Under the pieces are notes generated by a model. It saw only the letters and a list, made by a program, of their open reading frames with translations. It searched no databases and was not told the DNA's origin. Made by a program: the position numbers and the translations under genes. A stretch of 22,984 nt of DNA from Catajapyx aquilonaris (taxonomy: Eukaryota). Below are positions 1-22,906 of this stretch, piece by piece. The stretch is from contig JYFJ02001272.1 of assembly GCA_000934665.2 (NCBI GenBank), positions 62,001 to 84,984 on the forward strand, given 5' to 3'. Within the stretch, counting starts at the first letter, position 1. The number at the start of each line of letters is the position of its first letter.

Positions 1-699
1 TTCGACTTTCACTGCGCAATGAGCCTGCGGAAATACAACATTTGCAATCAAACTTACACCTTGAGGCGGATAATTCAGATTTAAAGCAATAAAGGTGGCA
101 AAAATTGAAACGGTTTTGATAAAATCGACATTCAGAAAGGGCAATTTGTCTTATATGGAGAAATACGTCCCCTACACATGATAAATTTTTTCAGGCGCAA
201 TCGACTAAACTTATCAAAACATATAGACCTACTGTAGAATAACAACATACTTATACAGTACAATATAATAAAATAATAAAATAGCGACTTTTACAACATC
301 AACAGTTATTAACGAACTATAGCTTGTAATGCCAATACAATACTATTATAAGGTATAGTGTTTCAAATGAGGTTAATTTCCTGCCGATTAGATGATATAT
401 ATTCGAGCACGTAATTCCTCACCACTTCCCGTACGAGAATTAATGGCTTAGCGTGTCGGTACAGTACTTCGCATCTCCTGAAAGATATGAAGAAAAATGA
501 AAAACCACATCGGATTTCGCATCCAGCCCCCTTCAATTACCGCCCAGATAGTGCATAACAGCCCTCCGCTGTAACTGCACCTGCTGTCAGGTAAAAAGCT
601 CCCCCATAGATATGCAAATATCCTGGCAGGGAACAAAACGCTGAAAAGGGGCATACAGTCAGGAAGAAAGGGTTCCCGTTCAAGTCACTTCCTGGCCAG

Positions 700-930
700 A
701 GCCCACTTAGGCAATGGACCAGATATGGACCTCCAGTTGGATAAAATACACTGTCCTTCCTTGTCTGAATAAAAATGTCGCAATGGTCAACGGTCCCTTA
801 ACACACGAGCACCTTTCCACACGCCTGCGACCTTTGACCGGCGACGGGACGCATTCGGGTTACTGCAGCATGCGTGAGACTGACCTCCATATTTCTGTAG
901 GTAATAATGGTGGGAATTGGCCCGACCTGA
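700..930 (+). mobile_element. Possible decayed non-LTR retrotransposon ORF2 C-terminal (zf-RVT-like) fragment
   Basis: The translation QIWTS…VNGPLT…RL…GYCSMRETDLHI loosely resembles the W..IW…LPT..RL…CxxC…ETxxHI pattern; some cysteines are missing. Confidence 0.28.
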
Positions 931-3608
931 TGACTCTCGGAACCCCCTCTTTCCTCCCCATAATATACCTATATGTGTATGTGGGACACCAAACTCTTTC
1001 ACCCAATGGAGACCTGGCACTTTAAAAAAAATGGAGGCGATCAAAGGGTGCATGCACAGTGTGTTGAATAATGGGATAGTTATACAAGAGTATCAAATTA
1101 GGGAAAGTAGCTGTATGAGATGTCAAAGGTTAACGGAAGCAAGGATATATGCGATTACATAATGCTTGGATAAAGACGTGCATTGCAGTAATTTATTACC
1201 AAGAATCAATGCCAAATACGGATAGCAATTCATCACAACAGAATTATAATGAATGGACGTCATTAATGTATTAATTGGCTAGATTTTAACAACTCTGTTC
1301 CAGCCGGCCATTTATTCAACTGCTGCCCCATCATATAGGTCAAAGAAGGTTGTAGTCAACATTGGTGACCAGCATTGAGGCAAGTGACACTAATGAGTAC
1401 GATTTCTAACATAATCCTCCCCCTCCCCCACCTCCCCGTCAGCAATGAGAAGTCCAAGCAACTTGTAACTGAATTGACAAAAAATGAATAACTTATACGT
1501 ACTACAGTATTACAAGTGAATAATTTTGCGACAAAATAGCTATTAATAAACTGTATGTACATTTGCAAAAAAAACTCGTTTTGCAGCAAAATTTTTGAAT
1601 TATTATTTACTCATATAAAATGCCATGCACATCAGTGCAGGTTACTAATTAATTATTTTTTACTGTATTATGTAGCAATGAGCTATACACTCAATAAAGC
1701 TATTAGAAAGAGTATCAAACCTCATAGAATTTGCACTATTTTCTTGTAAACAACGAACGTCGCCGTTCGCCTAATACCGTACTATATTATGTAATAATTA
1801 CGCTTGATATCAAAACCTGGTGAAATTCTTACACAACCCTAATGTTATTGTTCTATAAAAACAATAGTGTCCTACCAAGTTTGCCTATCTAATAACATGA
1901 TTGTTTTTGGATGGCAAAGACCATTTGCTTATCTTATGCTAACTCATTACTAACAGTTCAACAGGCAGGCGAATAAGAAGTAACATTTAATTGCACCACA
2001 TGTTCGTTCGTGGTATCAATGAAACAAAGAGCATCATGCTTGACCCTGGTGTAATACTGAATTGATCATAGATCTTCTTTAATAGGTCGGCATACAGTAC
2101 AGGTGGCAGGAGTAGGCTTGTGGAGCGGATTATACAATAATGCATGACCTAGTACTTTCTCGAAGCATTACCTGGATTACCGTTCGATATGCCCTTCTTC
2201 TGGGATAACTCACTGGGAAGGACGTGCGTGCCTTGCATTTTGCCTACTTACGCAGGATAAACTGGGTTCATCCAAGTGCCACACGGAGAGTAACTTTCCC
2301 CAAACTAATAGATCTGCCGATGTCTTAATATTACTGTAAGAATACAATGTTTGGCATACTCGATCAGGTTACAGAAGATTGCACAAAGTTTATATGACCC
2401 AAAAAGGCCCGTCTCGAAAGTGAGCAACATGCCAGACAAGTTACGCTGCAAATTTTTGCATACTATAAAAGCTGAGGAAAAACCCGATAAGTTATTGGCG
2501 CAATCAATGCAATAATGGTGCGAATTCCTCTGTCCCCACAGGCACTGAAAGGAAGCAACTTGTCCAGGAAGAGAACTAGTGCGCAGCATCATCCTGCAGC
2601 AACAATTCTTCCGCATTTTCTTTATTGAGGAACAGTCTTCGCCGGTACTGCATATCCTCAGATAAAAGACATTCGCACGGGAAAAAGCTATTTCCGCGAT
2701 GACTATGTGCAAAGCAATAGTCGCGGAACCACTCGTTCATTACTTTTTATGCAATCAGCCGGGTCTTATTCATTCGCACAATATAGAGGTTGCTGAACTT
2801 CCCAACCCCAGAAATAACTTCAAATAGAAGTAAATAAGTGTATGTATAAAGTGCAATAATATAAACTATAGTTTCTGGAGTGAACAATGGCCCTTCCCAC
2901 CCCTCCGAATTTGGGATTGAACAATACACCATCATGTACTAGGTTTATTTATTTATTTATTTTATTACCATGTGATCAGACCATGTAGGGGGACACTCCG
3001 AGGGACACTCACTCCATTTTACATATAACTTACTGTACTGTACATTTAATTGAACAATGAAAATGGTAAGAAATAGAGTGTCAGAGGAAAATTAATGCAC
3101 TTTGCACAGACTGTAGGCTTGACTGATCCATGGTGTACAAACAAGGCAATAAGGAAACATCGAGTATACGCAAACGACCAGAAAATTTTTCGAGGTGAAA
3201 TTTCGCAGCCATAACGAGTTACGTAACTTAATTGAAGCAAAACACTTGTATAGATGTATAGACCAGTAGCTTGGCCACGAGGCATACAAATTATTCCTAT
3301 TAGAGCAGTTGGCGTGGCCGGATATCACATTCAGGGATAGTGCTAGAGCTAGTGCACAGTTGGCAGGTGCGTGATCGGTTGTTCCGAATCCCCCCGGATG
3401 ACGGTGAAAGTAGAGAGCAAACTGTGAGTGAGTAGGAGGCAACACATCATACAGAATACAACTCTCTCCGCATTGGGGCAGGCGTCATTCCAGTCGAGGT
3501 CATCTGTTGGCTATCTACAGCACCTCAAGACAATAACACATTTCTTCTCCTCAAGATTGAGATGCTGCACGTCCGGACAGCATCTCATCACTGGCGTCCG
3601 TCTCTATA

Positions 3609-3671
3609 ATGACAACTTCTAGGCATCTGTACACCTCATTGCCTCAGGAAGATGGCGAGAATTCGCGAGTG
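3609..3671 (+). CDS. Candidate alternative first exon of DPP4 (MTTSRHLYTSLPQEDGENSRV)
   Basis: ATG, 21 open codons and a GTGAGT donor at 3672, phase 0 compatible with exon 2. Inr-like TCATTC at 3485-3490. Confidence 0.5.
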
Positions 3672-4577
3672 GTGAGTACAACAACGCAAAAGTGAAAGTA
3701 CTTGCCAAAATATACCAGTTGAAGTGAGTGGCGTAGCCGGGTCTGCCCTCTGCAGGCGACTTTGAAAAGTTCGGAGTTCAAGTTTCACATGTTAGGTGGC
3801 ATGCTTCTACTCGTGCGCAATGAACGTCCCTTTACAGTACAGATGTTGTACAGTAGCTTACATTATTACATGGTGTGTCAATGCAAATTGCAGGCGTTTC
3901 AAACGCGAATTATCCGGCTGGCTGGAAATTGCTAAATTTATTGCCCAACATTTCAATCCATGCTGAGCAGTTTCGCTTTGGTGCAGTGCATGCATCAGGA
4001 GAAGGAAAAAGCAGTAAAAAGTTTATAACTGCTCTAATGCCCATACTGTGACCATGATATGTTTACTCCCAACTCACTTTCCTTATTTTGAACTGTGGCC
4101 GTGACTCGGAATTAATTTTCTCCACGAGCAGGTGTGCCCCAACATGGAATAAATTACCACTCCTCTGGGTACAATACCAGCCATATATACTGGAGGGATC
4201 GTTGGTGCTTGACCTTTCAGACGAGATCCCGAATTTAAAGCATTGCGTGGCCAATTTGTCGCATTTCTGTACCAAGACGACAAACCGGATTAGTTAAATT
4301 GGCAGGAAATCACATTTGGAGGATGCGACGTTGACGTCACCAGTTGACACGGCAGTAGATGCGCATGAAAATACACGCCGATCCGTGGCACGGAAATCAT
4401 ATACAAAAAAAATTTCTCCCAGCACGAAAATATGTCACACTTTCATGCCAACCGTCATGCACGACTCGAAAAACCAGTCGCATCTGATGGCAATAAACTG
4501 ACGGAATAACCAAGATGCAGGCCCTTCATTCCTCGTTCAAGCTATTCTTCGGTGCGATGTCACTGATTTAACAATCA

Positions 4578-4604
4578 ATGGATTCACAATATGCAGAGAG
4601 TGAG
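4578..4604 (+). CDS. Candidate alternative first exon of DPP4 (MDSQYAESE)
   Basis: caATG, 9 codons, GAG|GTAATT donor, phase 0. Inr-like TCATTC at 4526-4531 and a CRE at 4332-4339. Confidence 0.35.
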
Positions 4605-4615
4605 GTAATTATTTC

Positions 4616-4659
4616 GTATTGTTGGTTGACAATTTGCAACCTGTGGCAACCAACAATAC
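4616..4659. repeat. 13-bp inverted repeat hairpin
   Basis: GTATTGTTGGTTG (4616-4628) and CAACCAACAATAC (4647-4659). Confidence 0.75.
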
Positions 4660-5446
4660 AAGAGCGTCCAGATTTTAGGGTCACCCTGTATTTGAAAAGG
4701 TGACATCACACGATTTTAAACAACTTGAAGTTACACAACGAATTCAGCTCCCAAGTGTCAACCACATCCTTCGATGGCCTTCCTTTCTCGAAGCCGTCTT
4801 ATCAAGTGGATTTCGTATCAAGAAAGGGGCATAACGGAACCGCGAATATTAGGCAGAGTAACGGTACTTCCAAAGTGGAGGTCGGTGTTTGTCGGAGGGG
4901 CAGTCTTCCTTTCGTATGATCGTACCTAGCGACCTTGGGATAGGACGTAAAAGAAAGAGGTTGCTGGATGCAGATGCTCCACATTCCGTTGGCCTCAATC
5001 ATGCAAATTGCCACTGGTAAACATTATTTTTTTCACACCTGTCCTCGCATGATTTGGTCCGACACTTTCAAGTAACTGCACATTACAGTCCAAAAAACGG
5101 CTTTTGTGCCGCACCGGTGTATGTACGGAATAACTTTCACGTCGCACGCGAGCCAATTGGGAGAGATTAGAGGGCAGTGTTATCCGGCCAAGGTCCCAGC
5201 TGCCAATGAGAGCTTGGGCAGATAGGCCTACACTGTTGGAAATTGGTCACTATCTGCCTGATGGAAATTGGAATAGCCAGCAGGAAGAGGCGTTTGACGT
5301 TTTTTTTTATATATCAAGAGTTGGCGGGGGCAGGCAAAGGGGGGTGGGAAGGTAGATTGTGGGGAGGGTGGGTGGGGGAAAATCCGGGTCGGAAAGACCA
5401 GACCAGGTTTAGGTTGGTTTGTTGAGAAGAACGCGGCAGGTTCAGG

Positions 5447-5476
5447 ATGGAGCTGGGAGAGAAGGATGAAACCAAG
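5447..5476 (+). CDS. Candidate alternative first exon of DPP4 (MELGEKDETK)
   Basis: ATGG start, 10 codons, consensus AAG|GTGAGT donor, phase 0. TATA-like run near 5308 and a G-rich leader. Confidence 0.5.
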
Positions 5477-8156
5477 GTGAGTTGGCTGCATACATAAGGA
5501 CCTACTTGCAAATAACTTGGTTGGAAAATTGTTTGTGAATTTGCATGTGCGTGATTGAAAATCCGGCACCGATCATGCATGTAGGAGTGGCCAGAAGGAA
5601 AGCGTGAGTCAACAGGCAAATTTCGCGATTTTCACACGGACTTTTCCTTATTGAAATTGCATACTGGAATAGATTGTCGCCGCTGAAGTTACTGTGACGT
5701 TGTGTCGGATATTGGCTTTTAAGGGCAATATTCAAAGGAGGCCATATAGTTAAAATACATACTCAAATGAACAAAAATATCTATATACAAATAACCTGCA
5801 ACCTGTCTACAGTGAAGTAGCTCTATTCCACAAATATTTCCCGCACTGAACAAGTATCGGAAGCAGAAAAACAATTCGCCAGGACGTAATAAAATTCTCT
5901 TATTAGCCAACATTCCGATGTGTCCAGGTCAGTTTGCAGGTAGTGGCATTGTACTGAAGGGGTATTTGTGTGGATTAGGTACTACTTTTGGCGCGTACTT
6001 CTAATCAAAAAATACCGATACCGATTGAAAACATCAACATGCTCTAGTCGCGACCTGATAAGGAATTTGCCGCAAGTTACACATCCTCTTCTAGAAGGGC
6101 AGATAACACGTCTACCTACACAACATGCAGGTATGATGTGCACATAGTAACCGACTATTCAATAGCATGACCTCGCAGCAATGCCTCGCTGGTCTTGTCT
6201 ATACCGGAGTTTCAAAATGATTCAGACAAACTTCTGTAGGTAAACTCCAGGACTCCCAAGGATCAACAACTGTAGACTCCGCAGTGGTTCCTCAGATAAT
6301 TAACATTAATCAAAGAGTATAAATTTTACCATCTCATATTTGGCGGTACAACTATCATGTCCACCTAAGGGGATTTGAAAAGATTGCACAGAGGGATGCA
6401 TACTTTTCAGGATCTTTTATTCCTTTTGTTTGAAGCTCATTATATCATGCTCATGGGGGCTAATTGTAAGACAAAATGACACCTCTATATACGTAAAGTG
6501 ATTCTCTCGTCTCCAAAAGTTCACCCTATGAGTAGTTAGTCTGAATCATTACGAAACGCCTTGAATACCAGTAGCCTGCAATTCAGGCAGTAAAACATAC
6601 CATTTTACCACGGGTGTATATAGCGAGACGCATTCGGTACTGTTCCCCTCCACCAACAATGAACCCCATGATTAACCCACTTCACACTCATTACCAAGAG
6701 TTACTGCTGACCTTCACACCGATTCTGCAAAATAATGTATGATGGTGGGGCACCCATATAATCCGGCAATAAAGCCAACCCCAAAACGACTCTAGAGGCA
6801 GGCAGAGTGTATTATTATTGGGCCAAAGTGGACGAAATGTTCCATGCAGACGGGCAGGAAGTCTTGGGGAAATCCCAGCTCATTAGGATTAACAAGGTCC
6901 AATGTTGAGGTTCTTCTTGACCATGGACGAATGCATGAAATGGGGCCTGATTATTCCGAGTGCTTACTCTGATTAAGCGGGGACAGCTGGTGTACAATTC
7001 TTTCTTGCTGTTTCGTCAAGTGTCATTTACAGATTACAGACTTGAACTGCAGGTGAAGTCCAATGCTTGAACCACACTTGAACCTGACCTCATCAAGTCT
7101 CGTTAGGGTTGCATCCCTGCACGGAACTAATGGAGAACTTGTGTGACAAATTTCGCGCACTGCACAGTCACTTCCGTTAAAGGTATGTCGAATCAGGGTG
7201 TGGTCTCTTTGAAGGTACATCAACCCACATTAATAATGCTCCCTTGTCGCAAGATTAATCGTAAAACTGGAAGCATTCGTATTGCTCTTTACGTCAGCCT
7301 GCTGCTGGCTTGGTTCTCCTTGGCTCATTGCTTGCAATTTATTTATTCGCAACTTTATGCTCCGTCTGAATCATTACGAGTGATCAAGGCGTAAATATTT
7401 ATTGCGGTTACAGACGTACAAAATAATGTCACTTATTTACGCCTTGTAAGTTGCAATGAATGATACAGTGGAATATGCAAAACATATTGATAGATCACAT
7501 TCTGCACGATAGTGTACGGTACACTCCGCACATTATACCCACTGCACTACTGCATCCCAATGGCAGATTTCAGTTCCTGTGAGGAAGTCCTACTTACTGT
7601 GGCACATGTACTACATTAAGTAGGGTTCCCAGATATTAATGAACATGTGCTAATAGATTGCGTAACAAATCCACTTGGCGATGACTAATACGTTTCTAAC
7701 ATGATAATCCGTAACAGCTGAGGGCCTAGTTTTCGGATCAATGACTTCCGTCGCGTCGGCGAGGAACTTTCATTCCTATACTCAACAAGCACAATTTAAT
7801 TCGTGGTCAGGGTGATTATTTAGCAGCAGAAGCGATGGACAGCGGTGCAGTAGGTCAGAAGAGCGTGAGATATGGTTTGCGCAGGTGACGTCTGCGAATG
7901 CACTCAACCCTGGCTATTCACATTATGCAAGTCAGCCACCCTAATGCCTTCAGACAGAAATTGCGACTGTCTTTTATCAGTGACCCACATGGTGGATGTT
8001 GCTAAATTATGTTGTTCATTCTGACCTCATATTATTATTGGGTAGATGCTACCAAATGCTACCCAAGCAGACAAGAATATCCACTGATTTTATTTATTGA
8101 CCTATCACCACCACAAAGGATTTTGATCAAAATACCACACACAATAGAATATTTTC

Positions 8157-8227
8157 CCGACATTCGGCTAACAATAATATTCACTGACGGATTCTGTCAG
8201 TGAATATTATTGTTAGCCGAATGTCGG
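8157..8227. repeat. Perfect 32-bp inverted repeat with a 7-nt spacer (fold-back/MITE-like)
   Basis: CCGACATTCGGCTAACAATAATATTCACTGAC (8157-8188) and its exact reverse complement (8196-8227). Confidence 0.9.
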
Positions 8228-8825
8228 AAAAATAAATTGCACACGATTCCTGAATATAAGCAAAGGATTCATCATTATTATTGCCGGGTTGCTATATGAA
8301 TTTCAAGTAGACAGTATGTGGGTACAGACGTACAGTTCAGAAAAATGTCAATCACCTTACACCTGCGTGGTACTGCACAGTCCAAGTCCACAGTCCGAAA
8401 GAAGAAGATAATTGCTAGCTCCCGCAACCAGAAAGCCATAATTAATAATCACAAGTGAATGTTGATTACTTTCTTTTTTCCTGCTGGGATAAACATTCCA
8501 TAACTTGTTCGACTGTGGACTGCATGAGTACTGCACCACCCTGTATAAAAGACTCTAAGTTTAGAGTGCAACGTGTCTAATTTAAATTATGTATGCAAAT
8601 GACGTACTATAGTCGGCCCGATTTAGCAAAATAAATCTGACCCGTATAAAAACCAATGACGCAATTGGACTAATCAATGACATCGTGGTTCAGAGTGATC
8701 GGAGTAAACAAGGTCCAATGACCGCAGCCAATTTCGCAATTCATGTCAACAAACATAAGCAAGCTGTCCGCTGAAGAAGAAAACAGTCCGTAGATTTCAT
8801 CTGGCCAGAGCATATTTGCCCCGAG

Positions 8826-8870
8826 ATGGAACCCACTCACGATGCCACGGTCTTGATTAACTCCTCAAAG
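8826..8870 (+). CDS. Candidate alternative first exon of DPP4 (MEPTHDATVLINSSK)
   Basis: gagATGg start, 15 codons, AAG|GTAGGA donor, phase 0. TATAAA at 8645-8650. Confidence 0.4.
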
Positions 8871-11467
8871 GTAGGACGAACTAACTGACATTTGACATTA
8901 TATACCATGGGTGTCCAGGCATGCAGAGGTCAATTGAATTATTGAAACAGCAATGCGTTGTGGGTTGCGAATATATAATGTTGCAATAGCCTACGCTGAG
9001 CCAAGATGTCAGAGCTGTATCGTAACCTCGCATATAAGATTGATCATTAGCATACAATCACCTTTCAAAATGAGGTCCAATAGATAAAACCAACGCCTGC
9101 AAAATGATAGAGTGCTTCATTCAATATATGATGCATACTTGTAGTCGTCATGTCAATCTGAAGATTAACGGTGGTAATTATTATCATCTTATTAACCCTC
9201 ACATGTGCTATAAAACAGCTATATAGGAACTTCTCTCAACTTGCAAGTCTCGACTGATTCACGCTGGCAAGAGAGATAAGTAAGTGACGCCAATGTGACA
9301 GATCGTGACGTGAGGTAGGGAAGGGTTCTGTCAAGAGTGACAATCACGCTCGTAAGTTACATTAAAACAATGAAAATAAAAAATTTGGGTAGTAATTTGG
9401 CCGACAAATGTCCTATCTCTTCAACAACGGACATTACCGTACATACTTGTAGACTTATTGCGTGCATGACATGAAAATGAAGGGATAGGTGCCAAAAAAA
9501 TCCGAACGTCAGCGTGACATACTTTATAAAATACCCCTTACTCATAAGATACACTGCTTTGCTATCTGCCCTTTATTCATTTTACAAACATCGCCCCGTT
9601 ACATTTCACCTCTCTATACCACCCTCTTGAACTGGGAACTTCAGTATACGAGTATACCACCTTGTATGATCGCATCAAGAAGTACGCTACACTTCGGATT
9701 CAGATGAGCAAGCCAGTGAGTAGCCTATACTTATAAACCTGTCGCACTTAAATAACCACTACTGCAATTACTTCAAATATTAATGCGGTGCACCAAAACT
9801 GTGAACGTGGTTAGAAAAACGGGTCACTTTATAGCCTCGAAAGTGGCCATCAGTTCCTATTGAAACTGGGCGTTTGAAATATTATTGCTGTTTCTTCGTG
9901 CCCTTGCGTGGATGCTGAGAATTTTACAGACTAGAGAGCGACTGTGTGCTTAGATAATAATAATAATTGTTACCGTCAGAATTTTTCGCGTGCCGCTTGT
10001 CTTTATTTATACAATATCTGCGACATGAATTGCATGACAGTTGCCTCGAACAGGAACACGCAATTGTTTGACTGGTGCAGATTTTTAAATAAAAAGGAGA
10101 TGGCATAAATTTCGTTACGTAACTATGCAAACGATTCCTTTTGAAGAAAAACATCGTTTGCAGGAAGCACCTTGTCCATATAATATGCATTCTCTCACAA
10201 TTTAGTGTATATTGCGAATAAAGGCAATAATAACCGTGCAGGAAATGAGGACATTTAGGACAAAATTAGATGCGCCATTTATTTGTAAACCCCATCCAAC
10301 TGCGTCAAGATTTCAATATCTCTTTGGAGCGAAGGTCATGAACTCGGCTTTTGCGCAATTAATTATCCAAGAAGTTCCCACTTTTGCTTCAATTTCGATT
10401 ATTCAAATTAGCCTAATAGTACTTATAGTGATTACCCATAATAGCACTGAAATATATTGGATATCCGGTATTTTAAAAGTACTGTTGCAAAACAACCATT
10501 CTAACAAGTGCAGTAATTACGTATCTAATTAGGTCTGAGGACAGACTGCTGTAAATCACCCAAAGGACTATTATAAGCTTGCTATTAATAGAGAAACATC
10601 TATGATTACAAAGTGTTAGTGGCAATCACAGTATTTGAACTCAGCTGTCAATTAATAATCCTCGAGTCTTTTTATCTGAACTGTGAAAAACCTCGTTAGG
10701 AGCGTATTGCTCTTGTGAACACTCCAGATTAGCTCATTATCAGGCCAATCCTCAAATTAGCCAGCGACGAAGCGTGTAACCTTACACGTCTATATGAACC
10801 CTCTCTAAAAGGCTCTTGACAGTATTCAATTTGCTCCAGTGTATTAATAAACCCATGTTGCATCCACGACAGTTAAAAATGGAGCCGGCGAAATCGAAAT
10901 TATTATCTAAGCTTCCTTGTTCACTCTTCTTTTTTTGAGGATCGTCCCGAAAAGAATGAGCGGAGGTGATAGTTTCTCCGTCACGGACACTTTAGCAAAG
11001 GAAAACTGGAGCTCTTTTCCGAGTCCCACAAAAGAACTTTTTGGAGTTGACCTCCTTTCTAAAAAAAATCCCATACGTGATGCCGCAAGGGGAATGACCA
11101 GACCCAATCATTTGTGTATGCATGGTGACATTTTAAGTAAATTCTGCGCAGACTCACGATTCGTATGCTGTGGTACATGGTAAATGTGTGTACATCACGT
11201 CCATTATGGTTTTTTTTTCGAAGAAAGGTGTAACTGGTTGCAATTTTTACATGAGGCCACAAGCCTAATTTTCACAAATTCTGTTTCTTTCCCCTCAGTG
11301 AATATGTCCCAGAAAAAGCTCTGCCGCTCACAGTCAGAGTAGGAAAAAACGGCTCAACCTTTACAATGTCCATAAAACTGGTTTACCACGCCAAGAAACA
11401 CAAGACAAAACTCTTTTTTAGTCCATCGCACTCGTGGGCATGCAACACCAGACGTAACCTGTGACAC

Positions 11468-11468
<1 letters not shown>

Positions 11469-11531
<63 letters not shown>
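11469..11531. repeat. (AAT)21 microsatellite
   Basis: Uninterrupted AAT run of 63 nt. Confidence 0.97.
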
Positions 11532-11853
11532 TCACACCCAGTGAGTCAGCCCAAGTGAACAATACGATTTTTTATATGCACCTGGCATTTTACAAGCGCG
11601 ATATGACCACCCTATTGTTCTATTACAGTAGCTCGTTATTGCTTCTAAAAAAAATTCTACGAATATTTGGCGACGTTGCGCGCTTTTTCCGTGACTTGCC
11701 CTACATTTTGAAAAAACGAGGATGGATTTGATTGAATCTTTCCCCAGCAATTGTTATGATACAATTTGTATATGCTGTGGTTATAACCCTTCGTATAAGT
11801 TAGTGAGAGGAAAGGATTGGAGTTGTCAGCTTCAGAGGGGGAGGGAGAGGGTA

Positions 11854-11950
11854 GTGACGTCACAAATTACGTGCGTGCATTTCCCATCCCCGCCACAAGT
11901 ACAACTACAGCCTCGGCAGTGAGGCCCGAAGGCGAAATCTCAGTTCAGTG
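11854..11950 (+). promoter_or_regulatory. Putative proximal DPP4 promoter (CRE palindrome plus arthropod initiator)
   Basis: GTGACGTCAC at 11854-11863 and TCAGTT (TCAKTY Inr consensus) at 11940-11945, about 120 nt before the ATG at 12064. Confidence 0.45.
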
Positions 11951-12063
11951 GAGGGGCTGGGGCAGGAGGGAATGGTGCCTTCGTGATTACAGTGCAGAAG
12001 TGAACCAACTTGTAAAAAAAAAAAGAAAGAAAGAAGGGACGCAGAGGACTTGGAAAACTAACC

Positions 12064-12117
12064 ATGGTGTCTCTGGACGGATCCAGGAATTCGTATGATC
12101 TCTCCAAAAGCAACCAA
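12064..12117 (+). CDS. DPP4: DPP4 proximal first coding exon (MVSLDGSRNSYDLSKSNQ)
   Basis: aaccATGg start, 18 open codons, then a GTGAGT donor at 12118. Phase 0 matches the acceptor at 12814 (…SNQ|ELV…). Confidence 0.75.
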
Positions 12118-15100
12118 GTGAGTTGTTATTACTGTTTGACTTGTTGCTATACAGTACTGTATATGCTTAAAAATACGGAGAAAGTGAACGGGTGACGTGT
12201 GCCAGCTGCATTCCCAACCGATCGCTACAATAGAGTAAAAATGCATACCATCAAGAGATACCATATACATGTGATGGAAGCGGCAAGGTCAGGTATGGTG
12301 CCATCATAATCATCGGCCCGGGAAATGAGCTACATTATGAACAAACACGGGGACTCAAAGTTAACAACATAGAATTGGTGTTTTCCTGTTTCCTTCTGTG
12401 CATTTTTTTCCCTCACCACCACCTCTGCCTTAACCAACTAGCAGTTTTTTCTAAATAATGGTAGATAATGGTCAATAACGGTTTCCGATGCGGTCAAGGA
12501 GGCCATCAGGGCAAGGCCTTGACCTGTGCTCCTTTGGGTGGGGCCTGACTTTTTGAGGAGTAGCCGAAGTCAGTGTTATAGGAATGCCATGAGGCCAACG
12601 CCTTCCTCTCCTTTTCCCCCCCTCCCCCTTCTTAACTTCCCCCCCACCTCTTCTCAACCTTCAAGACAAAAGTGATTCCCACCTGAGCTCTGGAATTTTA
12701 TCCCACCACGTGACCTTGGCTTTGCCTGATTTATGTGAGGGTCAAAATCTTGGGGTTGCGCAAAGTTCCACGAGGCAGGTCAAAGTGGACTAATAGTGTA
12801 CTCACAAATTTTAGGAGCTGGTCGATGGCGGGAGGTCATCCCGGAGGACGCGGTCCATCTACTGCATGGTCGGTGTCGGAGTGGCCATTGCGGTTGCAGT
12901 TGGTCTCATCATCCTCTTGGCCCTCCTGGAGAGGAAGCCCTCATCGGAAGAGTCGGTGGCAGCTGCCATGGGGAGATCTGCCGGGAAGAAGCCCATGAAG
13001 TTGAAGGATGTCCTCTCTGGCACCTTCTACCCTGAAAGCTTCAATGGCTCTTGGATCTCCGGTATGTGGCCTTCATTTCAATTACTGCAATGGCACACTC
13101 AATCGTGATAGCATGCTTTACTGAGCTCTTATCATGCCAGATCATCTACTACATGCAACCAAAATCAACTTGGGATCATTTGTCATTATGCTAATTGCTA
13201 ATAGGTTTTTGCCTCATAACGGCCTCATAATGACATAAAGTATTCTGTTGGTCGAATAATCAGACATTATCATGTAGAATTACTCTGTAAATATCACATC
13301 CGGATATTTGTAGCATCGCAAGGGAAATTTATTATTACCACCTTTGTGCATGAGAGCAATTCATCTGCACCAAGTTTATTAATAATTCAATGTTATCTCC
13401 CTTTCCAGACACTGCATACACTTATCGAACAAGCGAAGGAGAACTTGCCATGTACGATGAATCGACAAACAAACGACATATTTTATTACCTAAGCTACAT
13501 GCTGTGAGTATCCGATAACAGTAAAATAGGCGCACTGTAATTTGCTTGCAGGAGTTATTTCTAGATAACTTATAGCAAATGTGGCATTGAATCCTCTTGG
13601 CCACCTGCATCAGCGCCTGTGGAATTTCCAGATAAAATGTTCCTCGAAAATATAAGACTGTGATCAGAATTTGAATGCAGTCGTTAATCAAGTCTCTCAA
13701 TAGTAATTAAAACAAATGGGACACCTCAAATCATGGCCGTCACCTAATATCACAAATATGATACAGATTTCAGTTGTAGATGTACAAAGAGTCCAAATGC
13801 TCTCTATATACCTGCAAAAGTGTTTATTAAGTTTGTGGGCCATATGTATTGTATGCTTGGCTGGCCTTTGTATTCAATGCTGCATTGTGACTGATGTGTG
13901 CTGGAACAATCAGCCTTCCAATCATGATGGTGACACATGTGTGCAACCTAAATGATATCCTTTCTCTTCTACAGAGAAGGTTCCAACCAGCTCGTTACTG
14001 GCTTTCGGCTGATCGAAAATTTCTATTGTTAGCAAACAACATCCGCAAGGTAAGCAGCTATACAAACAAAGGTGACAAACTGTTGGGTGTTAATTACAAT
14101 GCATCAACTAGTATAACAATAGTCTTGCTAGAGTGCTCTTGTATGTTGTCAGAGGTCATGCTTGTTATAATATTACCACTCTAGAAAGTATATATAACTT
14201 TCATAATAATGCTTCTATTTACAGCTGTTCCGTCACTCCTTCCTTGCAAGCTACAAGATCTACGACATAGAAAACGAGTATGTCCTGCTTTTAATTCGTT
14301 TCAAAACAAAAAATGCCCAATTTTTGGGGGCATTTTGTATCTTTTTTTACATAATAGTTTTGATCTAATATGCACATAATTATATGCATCAGGCAAAGCA
14401 GAGCATCTATGTTTTTGATGCCATTTTAAAATGTTAAAGCAAGAAATCAATTGACAACAAGTTAACAGTAACACCACCTTTATTTTAACAGAGTCGTGAT
14501 TGATTTGAATCCTCCATCATGGAAAAACACTGATTCGTCTGCTCCTCTTCAACTGGTCAAATGGTCACCAACAGGGAGTTCCCTTGCCTATGTCTACATT
14601 GGAGATATATTCTACAGACAAAACCCACGCATCCAGAATCCAAATAATGACATCAGGATCACTACTTCAGGATCGCCTCTCACTATATTCAATGGAGTGC
14701 CGGACTGGGTCTATGAAGGTTAGTGGAACATAGCCATTTGGTAATCGAGATTATACAGTATTTACAAGGGTTGAATTTTTTCCATTTATGTAGAGGAAAT
14801 TTTGGGAACCAACTCTGCCATTTGGTTCTCACCTGATGGATCCCAATTAGCCTACGCATCGTTTGATGACAGTCAGGTTGAAGTCATGCAGCTCCCCATC
14901 TATGGTGAACCAGGAGACATGCGGTTTCAATATCCTCTGATGGAAACCATACATTATCCCAAGGTTAGAATCAATACGGCAAAAATGTGGATTTACATTA
15001 TGTTACTGATTTTGTCGCCTTCACTGCTACAAATGTGCTATTTTCAACTACAATGTTAGTCAGCAATCTAAAACTGATTATGAAAAATTCAGATAACTTA

Positions 15101-18100
15101 CACCAAGCAATTTAGGTACAGTATTTATGATATGATAGACTTTTATAAAATAATACAAATGGTGGGATGACTTTCTGGCGATTCAAATACCACCTGAGCA
15201 GCAAAATATGAAATGTTACCAGTCTAATATTGATTTAATATTTACAGCCAGGCACACCTAATCCAAAAGTGAACCTTTGGGTTGCCGACTTGTCAAATCC
15301 ATCACTAAGTCCAAAAATGCTGGTTGCACCATCAATGCTGAAGGATGAAGAGCAACATTTTATGGAGGTGGTGTGGCCGAATAAGGATGAAGTAGCTATA
15401 GCTTGGACGAACCGGGTGCAAAACATGTCCATCATTCAAATATGCCACACTGGCCAAGGAGAATGTGAAGATGTAAGTTTGCGCACCTCACTTACTGTAT
15501 AGTACAACAAAAGCGTTACTTTCTCATACCTTTTTGCTTTTTCCACTGCATTGTATTGTACACATCAGAAGAAACTGAATTTTATGATTTTTGTTTTGTT
15601 TTTTGTTGTTGTTGTTTTTTTCAAGCATGAAAGTACAAAACTGAATCCCTAAGCATTCTTTGCTATTGTGAGCATGTCTACTGGTACTCAAAACATGTCC
15701 AGTCAAAATGTCCTGCATGTTATTTATTTGGCTTGGTTCAGATCTTGCACATGCTGAAAAGGTTTACTAGTACATTAAAATTCTTTTCTCACGTGTTCAG
15801 AACTTGCCTGTGAGACAATTTCCCCCAGACTACCGTACTCATTTACTGTTCTACCAAAATATTATCCCTGCTTCTTCGTCATAAGAAACTTAGTTTTACT
15901 GCACTGGATTTATCCTTTCTCTCACTGGATGCTGGAATTTTATTGATACATTTCCATGACAAAAAGTTAATCAATACATATAAATTAATGAAATGTGGAA
16001 TAGGTGTAGCCATGGCCATGGTGCCAGTGTCAACAGCATCGAATTATTCCAGTGCCTTGGTGATGTAACTTCATCTAATCTACCACAAGCTAACCTACAA
16101 TAACTGAACCTGAATAAATTGTGGAAATTAGAAAGATTTTGCAGTCTTAGTGTGGGAAAGCGAGATGATATTTTAAAATCAGTCATACTTAATTTTAGTA
16201 GAAAAGCCACATTTACGCTTCATACGAATATTGATCATGTAGTGCTGATCTTTGGCCAGACCATAATTTTAAGTCTTAGAATATATAGTCACTGATTATT
16301 CGTTACCTTTTCCAGGCTCTGACGCTCACTGAACCGAGAGGTTGGATTGATGCTCCTGAAATGAAATTCAGCTCCAATGGATCAAAATTCCTCCTGATCC
16401 AGTCGCAGCCTCAGGGAGCAGGGGGGAACTTCAAGCACATCACACTCGTCACCAGAGATGGGAAAAGTTCAGTCAGTTACTTTGCAGTCACAGCTGGAGA
16501 GTTCACCGTCACTACCATTCTGAACTGGGATGAGAGCAAACACACAGTGTAAGACATATGCCTTCTAAAAGATTTTATGGAGCGTTAACCCCTTTGGCCG
16601 CAGTTTCCTACATGCACAGGCAATGGCACATGAAGGAAATGACCCCTGGGACCAAAGGGGTTAGAGATTATTTATATGAATGCTGCAATTGCATGCTTAT
16701 TATTTTATGTTAATATAACTTGACAGACTATACATGGGGACAAATGCATCAAGCCCTGAGCAGCAGCACATGTACGAAGTCCACGATGGCACCTGGGGAA
16801 AGAGGGACAGACCCTCGTGCATCACCTGTGCCGTCACGACCACCGACGGAACTCCCTGCAATTACAACAACATCAAGCTGAGCTCCTCTGGATCGTTCTA
16901 CATCCACACGTGTGAGGGTCCTGGAATACCAGAAGTCAATCTGTTTGACAAGGTAAGTACTTTTGTTTGGAAGTGCTGTCAAAATGGCATATATCATGAG
17001 TAGAATCAAATGTCACTTGACATTTTAGTCCTGCATTGTCTAACAGTACTTAAAGATGAGTTGCAGTCCTACATGTAGCTCACCACCAAAAAATGCATGA
17101 TCTGAACCATAATATCTTCACCTGCGTAGAACCACCAGCTGAAGCGCATCATCACCATCAACCACAACCTGAAGGCCACCATGGACGAGATTGCGATGCC
17201 AGGGAAGATGGACCTGCAGGTCCCGCTTCCAGGAGACCTAACAGCGCAGGTCTCCCTGAAGCTCCCTCCAGGACTGGACACGGCCAACCCAGACAAGAAG
17301 TACCCTCTCTTCATCAACGTGTAAGTAACTGCCGCACTTGCGATTACCATGCGTGACATGCTGCTGCGATGCGACACCCTGTAAAAAGTGAGGTACCAGT
17401 ACTGTCATTTGCACCAGTCTAGTGTTGACTCATCAGCTATTGTACTACAAGTAATTACAAGCTGTACTTACTGTAAGGCTTACATTGCAGATTAGCCACA
17501 CAAAATCTTGTGCATTCAGGTCATACCACCAGTAATGTGAAGCCCATTTTGTACACAATGTTTTCCTACTTGTAGTTAACGTACCTCAGCATAATTAGGG
17601 GCATAATTAGGCCATTAATTCCGGTCAGGTTCTGCTGAAATAATTCGTGGAACGTTCTAAAAATGTGGCTTCATGTCGACGTGTGACATGGCGCTAAATA
17701 TTAGTTCAGCATTTGCCCAGCAGGTAGCGTCCAGGTCGTTTCTTGACACTAGCGACACCTGTACCATTCAGAAAGTTATAAATATTAATAATTAATTTAA
17801 TTTTAACTCGACTTAATTATTATTTAAATTTCACTATAGTTGTGGATAATAATAAAAGACTAGAGTGGCGAGTGGGAAGTTTGAATTTGCAACACACTGT
17901 ACTTTCGCATGTTGCATTGTCGCATTTGTCATTCAGGTACGCGGGTCCCGACTCCCAGCTGGTGACCGACACTTGGAAGGTTGACTGGGGCACGTACCTG
18001 GCTTCGTCCAAGGGCATCATTTACGGCTCCATCGACGCTCGAGGTTCGGCCAGAAAGGGAGATGAGATGCTGTTTCAACTGTACCGTCGACTGGGTACCG

Positions 18101-19005
18101 TCGAAGTGGAGGACCAGATTGCTGTCACCAAGCACCTCCAGAACACCCTGCCCTTTGTGGACCCCAATCGGACCGCCATTTGGGGATGGAGCTACGGAGG
18201 GTTTGTCACAGCCATGACCATGGCCACTGATGTCAACGATGTGTTCCGGTGCGGTATATCCGTGGCGCCTGTCACCAACTGGATGTATTATGGTCAGTTT
18301 ATTGTCTGTATAACCTGCATATGTTAGCTCACTTGATCGTGTCAACATTTCAGACACCATTTACACCGAGAGATACATGGGATTGCCGACTCCCCAAGAC
18401 AACCTGATTGGTTACAACCGAAGCGACGTGACCAGACGGGTGAAGAATTTCGCGAAGAAAAAGTTCCTACTAGCCCATGGGACCGGAGACGATAATGTCC
18501 ATTACCAACAGTCTATGGTTTTGACCAAGGCTTTAGAAGAAGAGGATATACTCTTCAGGCAGCTGGTAAGCTCATTGCACTAATAATAATAATAATTTGT
18601 GTAATGCCGTACCTCAACAGAGGTCTTGGCAGGACCTTCATTTTGTCAAGGTGGTACATGAATTTGACAACGTAGAGTGGCCCTTGGTCCAAGGGCAGGG
18701 TGACTGGGAGGGGATGTGCAATGTGCACGTGCAATGTCGGCACTATGGTCATTTTGTGAGCTCCCTGGGTGGTTCGTTTATCGGAAATTCCACCCTAGAC
18801 GAAGCCGGAGAGGATCCCGAACTCCGCACGAGATGGGATCGAACCCGGGACCCTTCCCTCATTGCCCTAATTAATTTAAAACTAGTCATTAACAAACGGT
18901 ATTTTTCAGACTTATCCCGACGAAAACCATGGAATCCTGAGGCTGAAAACTCATCTGTATCACTCCTTAGGACAGTTTGTGGACGAGTGCTTTGCAACAA
19001 GTTGA
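12064..19005 (+). CDS. DPP4: Dipeptidyl peptidase 4-like (peptidase S9B, venom-DPP4-like type II membrane serine protease); spliced gene, 14 coding exons, ~819 aa
   Basis: Manual splice model: 12064-12117, 12815-13061, 13409-13503, 13975-14049, 14225-14277, 14492-14718, 14794-14963, 15248-15472, 16316-16548, 16727-16952, 17130-17320, 17937-18292, 18354-18565, 18910-19005. Total 2460 nt, all introns GT-AG and phases consistent. Motifs: TM anchor, PDWVYEEEI, WFSPDG, YPKPGTPNP, GWSYGG, HGTGDDNVH, YPDENHG. Confidence 0.95.
12815..13061 (+). CDS. DPP4: DPP4 exon 2: cytoplasmic end and transmembrane signal anchor
   Basis: ttttag acceptor; ELVDGGRSSRRTRSIYCMVGVGVAIAVAVGLIILLALLERK…FNGSWIS; gtatgt donor. 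Confidence 0.9.
13409..13503 (+). CDS. DPP4: DPP4 exon 3
   Basis: ctttccag acceptor; (D)TAYTYRTSEGELAMYDESTNKRHILLPKLHA; gtgagt donor; phases fit. Confidence 0.85.
13975..14049 (+). CDS. DPP4: DPP4 exon 4
   Basis: ctacag acceptor; RRFQPARYWLSADRKFLLLANNIRK; gtaagc donor. Confidence 0.9.
14225..14277 (+). CDS. DPP4: DPP4 exon 5
   Basis: tttacag acceptor; LFRHSFLASYKIYDIEN (RHS motif of the DPP4 family); gtatgt donor. Confidence 0.9.
14492..14718 (+). CDS. DPP4: DPP4 exon 6 (beta-propeller)
   Basis: …LQLVKWSPTGSSLAYVY…IFNGVPDWVYE; aacag acceptor, gttagt donor. Confidence 0.93.
14794..14963 (+). CDS. DPP4: DPP4 exon 7
   Basis: EEILGTNSAIWFSPDGSQLAYASFDDSQV…IHYPK; completes the Glu-Glu substrate motif. 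Confidence 0.93.
15248..15472 (+). CDS. DPP4: DPP4 exon 8
   Basis: PGTPNPKVNLWVADL…WTNRVQN…CED; tttacag acceptor, gtaagt donor. Confidence 0.93.
16316..16548 (+). CDS. DPP4: DPP4 exon 9
   Basis: ALTLTEPRGWID…FKHI…VTAGEFTVTTILNWDE; ttccag acceptor, gtaaga donor. Confidence 0.92.
16585..16664. mobile_element. Miniature piggyBac-type inverted-repeat element (MITE) in DPP4 intron 9
   Basis: TTAA-CCCCTTTGG…CCAAAGGGG-TTAG, with further internal pairing (TTTCCT/AGGAAA, CATG). Confidence 0.65.
16727..16952 (+). CDS. DPP4: DPP4 exon 10
   Basis: LYMGT…PEQQHMYEV…CITC…C…CEGPGIP…DK; gacag acceptor, gtaagt donor. Confidence 0.92.
17130..17320 (+). CDS. DPP4: DPP4 exon 11
   Basis: NHQLKRIITINHNLKATM…LKLPPGLD…KKYPLFINV (frame not shown in the ORF track); gtag acceptor, gtaagt donor. 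Confidence 0.92.
17937..18292 (+). CDS. DPP4: DPP4 exon 12 (catalytic serine)
   Basis: YAGPDSQ…IDARGS…LGTVEVEDQI…IWGWSYGGF…SVAPVTNWMYY. Confidence 0.96.
18354..18565 (+). CDS. DPP4: DPP4 exon 13 (catalytic aspartate)
   Basis: DTIYTERYMGLP…LLAHGTGDDNVHYQQS…ILFRQL; tttcag acceptor, gtaagc donor. Confidence 0.96.
18585..18857 (-). mobile_element. 5'-truncated tRNA-derived SINE in the last DPP4 intron
   Basis: Pol III B box GGTTCGATCCC (18835-18845, - strand); (ATT)n tail at 18582-18596; flanking direct repeats CTCATTGCACTAAT (18571-18584) and CTCATTGCCCTAAT (18858-18871). Confidence 0.8.
18910..19005 (+). CDS. DPP4: DPP4 exon 14 (catalytic histidine, stop)
   Basis: tttttcag acceptor; TYPDENHGILRLKTHLYHSLGQFVDECFATS then TGA. 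Confidence 0.94.
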   Translation, partial: TYPDENHGILRLKTHLYHSLGQFVDECFATS

Positions 19006-20883: not shown

Positions 20884-20972
20884 CTGTCCCAGGTAAAAAT
20901 GCAACAAAATATTACGCAAAAGTTTGAAGATTCACGATAAAATGAAAAACTACACTGATGAAACATTCTTAC

Positions 20973-21246
20973 CTTCCACGTTTCTTACGAACTTTTGGAG
21001 AGCCTTCTCTCTCTCCAATGGGGTTTGTCTTGTATGGCTGTTAATGTCTTTCATTAAATTGTAATTTGATCCAATGCGATCCGTCATCCCCGTCAAGCAG
21101 CAGAGTTCCGGCACGATGCAAATGAGATGCGTAGTCATCTGCTTCCCACCCTTTTCCTGCTTCTTAGCATGAGAGATGAGCATCGGTTGACATTCATCAT
21201 GGATGTCCAAGTTGTGTGCTCTCCTGTAGTACTCCATGTACGTCAT
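20973..21246 (-). pseudogene. AGO3: Ago3-like PAZ exon 2 / L2
   Basis: MTYMEYYRRAHNLDIHDECQPMLIS…ICIVPELCCLTGMTD…MKDINSHTRQTP; ctatag acceptor, gtaaga donor. Confidence 0.92.
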
Positions 21247-21506
21247 CTATAGGGAGATAGCAACAAGACTGTTGTTAATCAATGTTTTTAAAAACCTTGT
21301 GTGCACCGAACGAAAATAAACTTCATTCTACGGAAAACTCTCTAAGACAAACGGAAACAGACTGTTTCCAACCAGCGCAATCGATCCCAACCAAATTATA
21401 TGAATATTATAAGTGCTTAATGCACATAAGCTTCATGAGTAACCGCATAAAAGGCTAGCCTTCAGAGTCCACATTGCTCTGCATAAATGGTAATTAAAGG
21501 GCTCAC

Positions 21507-21675
21507 CTCCACCTTTCCATCCCTATTAGTGAAAGAGTCAGTTGGCTTCAGGTGCCAGTCGATATCGTCAATCCTGTACATCTTGTTATTATATCTTGTG
21601 AGGACGTATGCACCAGTAACCATCTTCAGAATCTCATCCTTGAAGTTGCCAGAAGACTCGCACATAACATATGTC
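21507..21675 (-). pseudogene. AGO3: Ago3-like PAZ exon 1
   Basis: …[38 protein letters not shown]…; ttgcag acceptor, gtgagc donor. Confidence 0.92.
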
Positions 21676-22163
21676 CTGCAATAATTATTGGTGTATAGTG
21701 CGTTACACACATTTGCCACAACAATTCATCACAATATGACGCCCCTATATGACACGGATACCCAGTCCACTATGATCTTCTGACTCTCATCCTGCAAATG
21801 CAGCAGTAAAGAGTGGATAATAATGAACTAAGGCTAGAGCGGGCTATAGAGTAGAGGAAAACCTGAATTATTTTGGGTAATGTATCTGAGGCTTTAGTTC
21901 GTGTAACGCAGTAAATATCTTTATTGGATCTTGGTAGGCCTATTGCCCGTTCAGAGACACACATCCTTGATTCGAATGGCTAAACCTGGATCCATGGACT
22001 GTATGGGATTTGTTGTACTGTACATCAATGCAATATGCATCTATCCCTCTCAAAACAGCTGGTGAAACTCATACAAAAAATTTCTTTCGCTTTCCTAATT
22101 TTAAGTTAAACCATAGTCACTTAGAGAAAACAACGGAATGTTGTAGGTGTCAGCAAAACTCAC

Positions 22164-22277
22164 ATAACATCGAGTGCAGTCTGTGTGCGGGGTACCTTCT
22201 GGGAGCCATCGCAGCACAGCATCAGCCTACCTTCATGCTGGTGGACAGCTGTCACATAACCTGGCCACTCTTCCAGC
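22164..22277 (-). pseudogene. AGO3: Ago3-like L1 exon
   Basis: LEEWPGYVTAVHQHEGRLMLCCDGSQKVPRTQTALDV; ttttctcttgaag acceptor, GTGAGT donor; not in the ORF track. Confidence 0.88.
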
Positions 22278-22428
22278 CTTCAAGAGAAAAGAGAATCCCA
22301 ATGACAATACAAGTGTCATAAACTATCTACAAGTTTAAAAGTTAAGTGGAAACACAAAATATGAAGATGAAAAGGCATTAGAACATCATTCTACAAATTC
22401 AGTAGCCTCTACTCTAACAATAACTTAC

Positions 22429-22820
22429 CTCTGCTGAGGGGTCTGTGTCCCAGTCAGTGGGTTGTAGTAGTACGGCAGTCCTACTTTGACCATGTTGAGC
22501 TTGGACATAATTTTGTCCAACAGTAGGTTATAAAAGTGGATGTCACGTCCACCTTTCGATTGTTTCCGAGTCAGGCTCACTGTCAGTGGCACTGGGGTCA
22601 GGTCAACAGGATGGATGGATCTCAGCTGCATGACCTTCTCTGGCAACTCATATGGCAGGTAGAGTTTGGCACCATCAAAATAGCGGGTGGGTCCCAGAGT
22701 CTCCGCTACTTCTCTCATTACCTGGAATCGCATGGTCTTGGAATGCACTTTGGGGTCGAACGTCACCTCGTACTCAAAAAAACCCTTTCCCGCTTCCGCA
22801 ATGTTGAGAAATATGCAAGT
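22429..22820 (-). pseudogene. AGO3: Ago3-like N-domain exon (5' boundary lost or unclear)
   Basis: TCIFLNIAEAGKGFFEYEVTFDPKV…FDGAKLYLP…SIHPVD…HFYNLLL…YYNP…PQQR; GTAAGT donor at 22428. No CAG/TAG acceptor before the upstream in-frame stop. Confidence 0.85.
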
Positions 22821-22906
22821 GTAATGTATGGAGCATTGTTGTTAATTATGTTGTTTGTGATTGTAATGTATGTAATGCATGGAGCATTGTTGTTATATTT
22901 ATGTTG
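22821..22906. repeat. Imperfect direct repeat, about 33 bp x2
   Basis: GTAATGTATGGAGCATTGTTGTTA… at 22821 and GTAATGCATGGAGCATTGTTGTTA… at 22872. Confidence 0.8.

Follow-up and report, generated by a model that had tools for sequence, protein, structure and literature searches.

The window analysed here, a 22,984-nucleotide (nt) stretch of the Catajapyx aquilonaris genome (contig JYFJ02001272.1 of GenBank assembly GCA_000934665.2, positions 62,001 to 84,984 of the forward strand), contains on its plus strand a gene of the dipeptidyl peptidase 4 (DPP4) family. The 5′ end of this gene is probably built as a common anchor exon, opening at position 12815 with the residues ELV, onto which short first exons with their own ATG are spliced; the segment 12064-12117 is the canonical first exon, and 3609-3671 a probable second one that lies distal to it. 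That the gene possesses at least one coding first exon besides the canonical one is likely. The original prediction, made from the letters alone, held that five micro-exons in the apparently empty 12 kb upstream of the gene form a multi-promoter cassette that gives one active peptidase several cytoplasmic tails. What stands of that proposal is the design itself, which is found in orthologues, together with the conserved exon at 12064; no support was obtained for the segments at 4578, 5447 and 8826, and the case for 3609 is suggestive only.

The canonical exon is recognized by the peptide that it encodes. In the alignment test, candidate peptides received a Smith-Waterman local score against 92 orthologue tails, with equal-length ATG-initiated peptides from both strands as decoys alongside 300 shuffles. 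The peptide of 12064-12117 reached a score of 40 against the Pollicipes tail P0106, above every one of 213 decoys (0/213) and above all of the shuffles (0/300). A profile made from 16 orthologue tails (type A, with the window left out) ranked the fragment holding 12064-12117 first of 943 six-frame fragments, with an E-value of 0.036 and a runner-up at 1.2. Indeed a short tail ending in SYDL..S.Q or SLEM..SNQ, followed by [ED]L[VLIM] and a membrane helix, is common to barnacles, decapods and insects, and 12064-12117 together with the start of the anchor exon has the same arrangement as the orthologue tails in which SYDL..SNQ runs into ELV. The predicted role of this segment as a first exon is borne out by both alignment and profile: it is almost certainly real and, judged by its homology, is the conserved, ancestral and canonical first coding exon of the gene. 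The initiator-like TCAGTT at 11940 and, upstream of it, a TGACGTCA site at ~11855-11862 (direct reading) are likely to be the core promoter of this exon. By direct reading the stretch before 12064 is purine-rich and has no polypyrimidine tract. A long (AAT)n microsatellite occupies 11461-11540, ~500 nt upstream of the exon. For annotation, an exon as short as that at 12064 is easily missed, and the 'empty' 12 kb upstream of the gene merits a search for micro-exons.

The body of the gene is defined by a single contig of 2997 letters, which joins 13 exons between 12815 and 19594 through 12 GT..AG joints with zero mismatches; it derives from X1, the only sequencing run found, whose kind is not on record and whose data take the form of contigs. 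The joined reading frame is open over 801 codons, and the exon translations hold a serine, an aspartate and a histidine in the contexts GWSYGG, GDDNVH and ENHG, which we take to be the catalytic triad. Matches to Pfam were DPPIV_N (PF00930, E 1.9e-13) in exon 14492-14718 and Peptidase_S9 (PF00326, E 1.4e-29) in exon 17937-18292. A search with the latter, exon 12, returned 1084 proteins at E <= 1e-20 from 3702 candidates; the best 120 of these 1084 are nearly all from arthropods and are named as venom dipeptidyl peptidase 4, DPP4-like, FAP-like or DPP10-like, whilst identity to database proteins is at most 67% among the matches listed. These matches place the gene among the arthropod DPP4-family peptidases (peptidase S9B), without a close relative in the databases searched, and its product is predicted to be an active S9B peptidase in which the triad is kept. 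In the anchor exon a hydrophobic stretch of ~21 residues follows a basic ELV..RR segment, consistent with the type II membrane topology of a DPP4-family protein; a search with this exon for longer proteins gave zero matches at E 0.001.

The acceptor of the anchor exon, ttttag/GAG at 12814/12815, is in phase 0 and the frame downstream of it opens with ELV, both acceptor and frame being confirmed by the spliced contig. The second letter of this contig falls on 12815 and one letter at its 3′ end is unaligned. None of the X1 contigs matched 1-12814, an absence that carries no information on the expression of a first exon. A reading of this contig start as a branch of the assembly graph, with several upstream partners, was dropped: the end of a contig in one study is no usable hint. 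The same contig start is the only reason to consider that a trans-spliced leader is added at 12815, with no upstream exon of the locus in use, and it is not one that counts. The conserved SNQ-to-ELV tail at 12064-12117 shows cis-splicing to be ancestral; by direct reading, the first ATG past 12815 falls in another frame, and no in-frame methionine comes before the one at the start of the membrane helix; Rfam reports no spliced-leader RNA in the window, although this last point is weak evidence. We regard trans-splicing as highly improbable.

The attachment of several N-termini to one anchor has ample precedent among arthropod orthologues. The members of 20 orthologue clusters were listed, and full-length proteins sharing a 30-residue word near the N-terminus were placed together, which gave 23 groups. 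Between 2 and 12 distinct N-termini were found in 16 of the 23, the point of divergence being precisely the [ED]L[VLIM] that immediately precedes the membrane helix (the junction variant GLL or GLM occurs in two groups, Daphnia and Prorops). These 16 groups cover shrimps, crabs, barnacle, planthopper, thrips, mayfly, ants, ladybirds, dung beetle, mosquitoes, two parasitoid-wasp groups, Daphnia, two horseshoe-crab groups (one of which pairs two species) and scorpion; the remaining seven show between-species differences or internal starts. Most members of the 16 groups bear the names of isoforms from a single gene on a single contig, such as Macrobrachium nipponense X1-X7, Amphibalanus amphitrite X1-X3, Nilaparvata lugens X1-X4, Tachypleus X1-X3, Aedes X1-X3 and Thrips palmi X1/X2, and Logan transcript assemblies also contain some of the N-termini (P0010, P0125, P0141, P0183, P0184 and P0209). 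The alternative-first-exon design that had been proposed for the window therefore has strong precedent in the predicted isoforms of its family, at the same ELV-type junction. In some isoforms of Scylla (P0143, P0149) and shrimps (P0023, P0132) a second small cassette lies between the first-exon peptide and ELV, which implies that the 5′ region of these genes can hold internal micro-exons besides first exons.

All five segments of the window were located where they had been predicted: each starts with ATG, is free of stops and ends at a phase-0 GT donor, in frame with the ELV exon, and their lengths (63, 27, 30, 45 and 54 nt, from 3609, 4578, 5447, 8826 and 12064, respectively) are all multiples of three. 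The donor is GTGAGT at 3672, 5477 and 12118, GTAATT at 4605 and GTAGGA at 8871. Donors were scored with a rough matrix based on the metazoan consensus. The donors of the gene's own 12 introns, which include GTTAGT, GTTAGA, GTCAGT and GTATGT, are looser than this matrix, so that the true donors of the genome will be looser too, and many weaker chance candidates also exist. At a threshold of 4, the plus strand from 1 to 12814 contains six segments that run from an ATG to a phase-0 donor (the five, and 3057-3065), compared with a mean of 1.79 (standard deviation 1.28) in 200 dinucleotide shuffles, only one of which reached six. The reverse strand gave two in the same test, and segments ending at phase 1 and phase 2 donors numbered 2 and 4. 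When the threshold was raised to 5, four segments were left against a shuffle mean of 0.875, and 3/200 shuffles reached four. The excess of such segments over chance is real but modest. Seven open reading frames of 101-143 residues upstream of the gene have no Pfam match, and in the upstream region there are no repeats over the candidates, no Rfam family and no transfer RNA.

The segment 3609-3671 resembles a known type of tail. Its peptide contains YTSL and then an acidic cluster, a motif that is missing from the peptides of the other four, and one recurring class of orthologue tail has YSPV, YKPV, YAPV, YQRL, YTRL or YKKL followed by acidic residues. For the test, the motif was written as YxxΦ followed by at least three D/E in a span of 5 residues whose start lies within 6 residues. 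This pattern occurs in 13 of the 92 orthologue tails, from seven lineages (tail shuffles had a mean of 1.8, and 0/500 reached 13), in none of 176 other ATG-initiated 21-codon decoys and in 14 of 2000 shuffles of the 3609 peptide. As an alternative exon, 3609-3671 is probably real: the claim gains from its likeness to one orthologue tail class by a sorting motif, which is suggestive, and gains nothing from the alignment and profile tests, which were not significant. A short upstream open reading frame (uORF) ends on the start codon itself, the last A of its TAA being the A of ATG 3609 (Table 1). This uORF is relevant only if transcription starts upstream of 3562; with a transcript that starts further upstream, the TAA/ATG overlap could couple termination to re-initiation.

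Another account accepts only 12064-12117 as a real first exon and puts the other four segments down to chance ATG...GT matches in DNA outside the transcription unit, whether intergenic or promoter-distal. A number of results argue in this direction and weigh against the proposed cassette. None of the five donors is joined to 12815 in the X1 contigs, the segments were chosen by the same criteria as are under test, and ~1.8 of them are expected by chance at threshold 4. Four of the five peptides do no better than decoys in alignment: the score of 3609-3671 was equalled or beaten by 11/176 decoys and 40/300 shuffles, and decoys scoring at least as high as the peptide numbered 255/324 for 4578, 166/312 for 5447 and 79/251 for 8826. 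Nor do profiles pick out 3609, whose fragment was placed 15th of 513 reported matches (E 19) by the type-B profile and outside the top 10 of 574 by a second, motif-centred profile, both of these tyrosine-class profiles favouring 9720-9752 over it. The YxxΦ-acidic motif was itself defined post hoc, after the orthologues and the candidate had been seen, and five candidates were set against several tail classes. It had also been claimed that most candidates have promoter-like motifs upstream; all five do have a TCAKTY in the preceding 200 nt or a TATAWAW in the preceding 250 nt, but this carries little weight, as such initiator- or TATA-like motifs likewise precede 38% of all 242 plus-strand ATGs, and TCAKTY occurs 21 times on the reverse strand against 13 times on the plus strand. 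Upstream ATGs or uORFs precede 3609 and, by direct reading, 8826. The orthologue isoforms, finally, are mostly RefSeq model predictions, unchecked against reads. Against chance as the whole explanation stand the count of six segments, attained by a single shuffle, the several N-termini in most orthologue groups, which would make a gene with only one first exon unusual, and the 3609 motif, which is rare by chance and recurs in orthologue tails. On balance, we consider it unlikely that 12064-12117 is the only real first exon.

The 11-codon stretch at 9720-9752, the top match of both tyrosine-class profiles (E ~0.07-0.08), was rejected as a candidate, being bounded by stops and having neither an ATG nor a usable donor. 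It was treated as a chance match, which it probably is, and it is possible that it is a decayed exon.

The segments at 4578, 5447 and 8826 find no support as first exons, their peptides scoring no better than decoys. Most other orthologue tails are lineage-specific and therefore cannot validate these three. Profiles of two decapod-specific tail classes (one of 47 residues, the other 'MESLGK') detected nothing in the upstream region, the best E-values being 0.67 and 4.5. The segment 5447-5476, which has the best donor of the five, lies within a G-rich stretch of positive GC skew (0.16-0.20 at 4501-6000); its reality is somewhat doubtful, and both 4578-4604 and 8826-8870 are unlikely to be exons. 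Alternative first exons might also exist and be other than the five, as very short or non-coding leaders or as exons upstream of the window. Some orthologue tails are only 1-4 residues long and some isoforms begin within the anchor exon, and the window has further candidates at 3057-3065 and 9704-9715. Nothing specific points to such exons, however, and the five have better donors, so this account is given little credence.

Table 1. Coordinates of the DPP4-family gene, its first exon, the candidate first exons and associated features in the window.
Feature	Position	Strand	Basis or remark
Canonical first coding exon, 18 codons, donor GTGAGT	12064..12117	+	Alignment and profile tests; encodes SYDL..SNQ tail preceding ELV
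Initiator-like TCAGTT, 124 nt upstream of ATG 12064	11940..11945	+	Motif scan
Candidate alternative first coding exon, 21 codons, donor GTGAGT	3609..3671	+	YxxΦ and acidic cluster in peptide; initiator-like TCATTC at 3485
15-codon uORF; TAA stop shares last A with ATG 3609	3562..3609	+	Translation, direct reading
Candidate micro-exon, 9 codons, donor GTAATT	4578..4604	+	No independent support
Candidate micro-exon, 10 codons, donor aag/GTGAGT	5447..5476	+	Best donor of five (score 8.2); TATAWAW at 5308
Candidate micro-exon, 15 codons, donor GTAGGA	8826..8870	+	TATAWAW at 8645; no independent support
Common anchor exon (ELV start, rest of cytoplasmic tail, signal-anchor helix, ectodomain start)	12815..13061	+	Contig start; joint 13060/13408
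Coding exon 3	13409..13503	+	Contig and frame
Coding exon 4	13975..14049	+	Contig and frame
Coding exon 5	14225..14277	+	Contig and frame
Coding exon 6 (DPPIV_N)	14492..14718	+	Contig, frame and Pfam
Coding exon 7	14794..14963	+	Contig and frame
Coding exon 8	15248..15472	+	Contig and frame
Coding exon 9	16316..16548	+	Contig and frame
Coding exon 10	16727..16952	+	Contig and frame
Coding exon 11	17130..17320	+	Contig and frame
Coding exon 12 (Peptidase_S9; catalytic serine in GWSYGG)	17937..18292	+	Contig, frame and Pfam
Coding exon 13 (catalytic aspartate context)	18354..18565	+	Contig and frame
Last exon (catalytic histidine context, TGA 19003-19005, 3′ untranslated region to contig limit)	18910..19594	+	Contig and frame

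The preferred reading, a shared anchor served by short first exons, would work as follows. The phase-0 ELV exon would receive first exons that each bring a start codon and presumably a promoter of their own. Proximal first exons would be skipped in the way usual for genes with alternative first exons: since first exons have no acceptor, a transcript from a distal promoter would splice its first donor directly to 12815 and pass over those nearer to the gene. The product would always be the same active ectopeptidase, variable solely in its first 9 to 21 cytoplasmic residues; the distal exon 3609-3671 would supply a tail with a YxxΦ sorting motif and acidic residues, whilst 4578, 5447 and 8826 may be either lineage-specific first exons or chance matches. 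Tyrosine-based (YxxΦ) signals in cytoplasmic tails are established sorting signals in cell biology. By analogy with these, adaptor-mediated sorting or endocytosis would be promoted by the YxxΦ-acidic tail and not by the canonical one, and the choice of promoter could in this way yield different cytoplasmic tails and hence different trafficking or partners. The use of distal exons, their separate promoters and the sorting function are all inferred. If distal exons are used, an active peptide-processing enzyme would be regulated by the type of its tail as well as by its amount.

Other elements of the window lie beside these features. Between the candidates 5447 and 8826 there is an 85-nt near-perfect palindrome (8150-8234), with arms of 42 nt that are 95% complementary and a spacer of 1 nt; a foldback element and a hairpin RNA are both conceivable identities for it. 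In the last intron of the DPP4-family gene, 18584-18850 is partially matched by several other X1 contigs with loose ends and odd joints, and looks like a dispersed repeat; on its minus strand a tRNA-like box can be seen by eye, where ARAGORN and Rfam report none. Towards the end of the window, at 20953-22841 on the minus strand, are the exons of a Piwi-family gene that lies tail to tail with the DPP4-family gene (Pfam Piwi_N, E 1.7e-09; two PAZ pieces, E 1.3e-10 and 8.6e-13).

The comparison extends naturally to other members of the family. One close likeness is with the sets of predicted isoforms that RefSeq gives for arthropod 'venom dipeptidyl peptidase 4' genes, which are orthologous active peptidases with the same junction and the same canonical SYDL/SLEM..SNQ tail, and among which there is a second type of tail with YxxΦ and acidic residues. 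These sets differ from the window gene in that they are models annotated as having transcript support, whereas in the window gene only the canonical exon has homology support. Although the arthropod isoforms are already visible in public gene models, no description of alternative first exons in arthropod DPP4 genes, nor of the shared ELV junction, came up in listings of open-access papers. Mammalian DPP4/CD26, a type II membrane serine exopeptidase, shares the two domains and has a single, very short cytoplasmic tail; PDB chains of DPP4 match the family, and we know of no array of alternative coding first exons described for the mammalian gene.

The vertebrate relatives DPP6 and DPP10, which the original prediction had cited as a parallel, are those in which alternative first exons have already been documented. 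According to two papers (Jerng and Pfaffinger 2012, 2014; PMC3366920, PMC3973911), alternative first exons named 1a, 1K, 1L, 1S and so on give both proteins variable cytoplasmic N-termini and are joined to a common set of 25 exons; exon 1K contributes 17 positions. The junction itself is common to DPP6 chains in the PDB, where ELVGSN is found at residue 18 of an 801-residue chain (7ukg_I) and at ~residue 75 of an 873-residue chain (7w6t_I), which makes the comparison more than an analogy: the proteins belong to the same family, and the common part of each begins with ELV just before the membrane helix. Since the same papers give the first exon nearest exon 2 as the broadly expressed one in DPP6/DPP10, the comparison suggests that 12064 may have a similar role. 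The systems differ in that DPP6 and DPP10 lack catalytic activity and serve as subunits of Kv4 channels, their variant tails altering channel gating, whereas the window gene keeps its catalytic triad, and its candidate alternative exons show no likeness to those vertebrate variant exons that could be compared. A more far-reaching view, which we put forward as speculative and rather doubtful, is that a cassette of first exons on an ELV anchor exon is an ancestral bilaterian feature of DPP4, DPP6 and DPP10, that DPP6 and DPP10 did not invent this tool kit but inherited it from an active peptidase, that one old arthropod tail class is YxxΦ-acidic, and that the window carries both old classes, at 12064 and 3609. 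If this were true, promoter choice would route the same ectopeptidase to different membranes. The idea of an ancestral cassette with an old sorting-signal tail deserves a proper comparative study. The shared ELV junction connects the well-studied N-terminal variants of vertebrate DPP6 and DPP10 with a gene design that is far older, and offers simple invertebrate systems in which the function of such tails could be studied.

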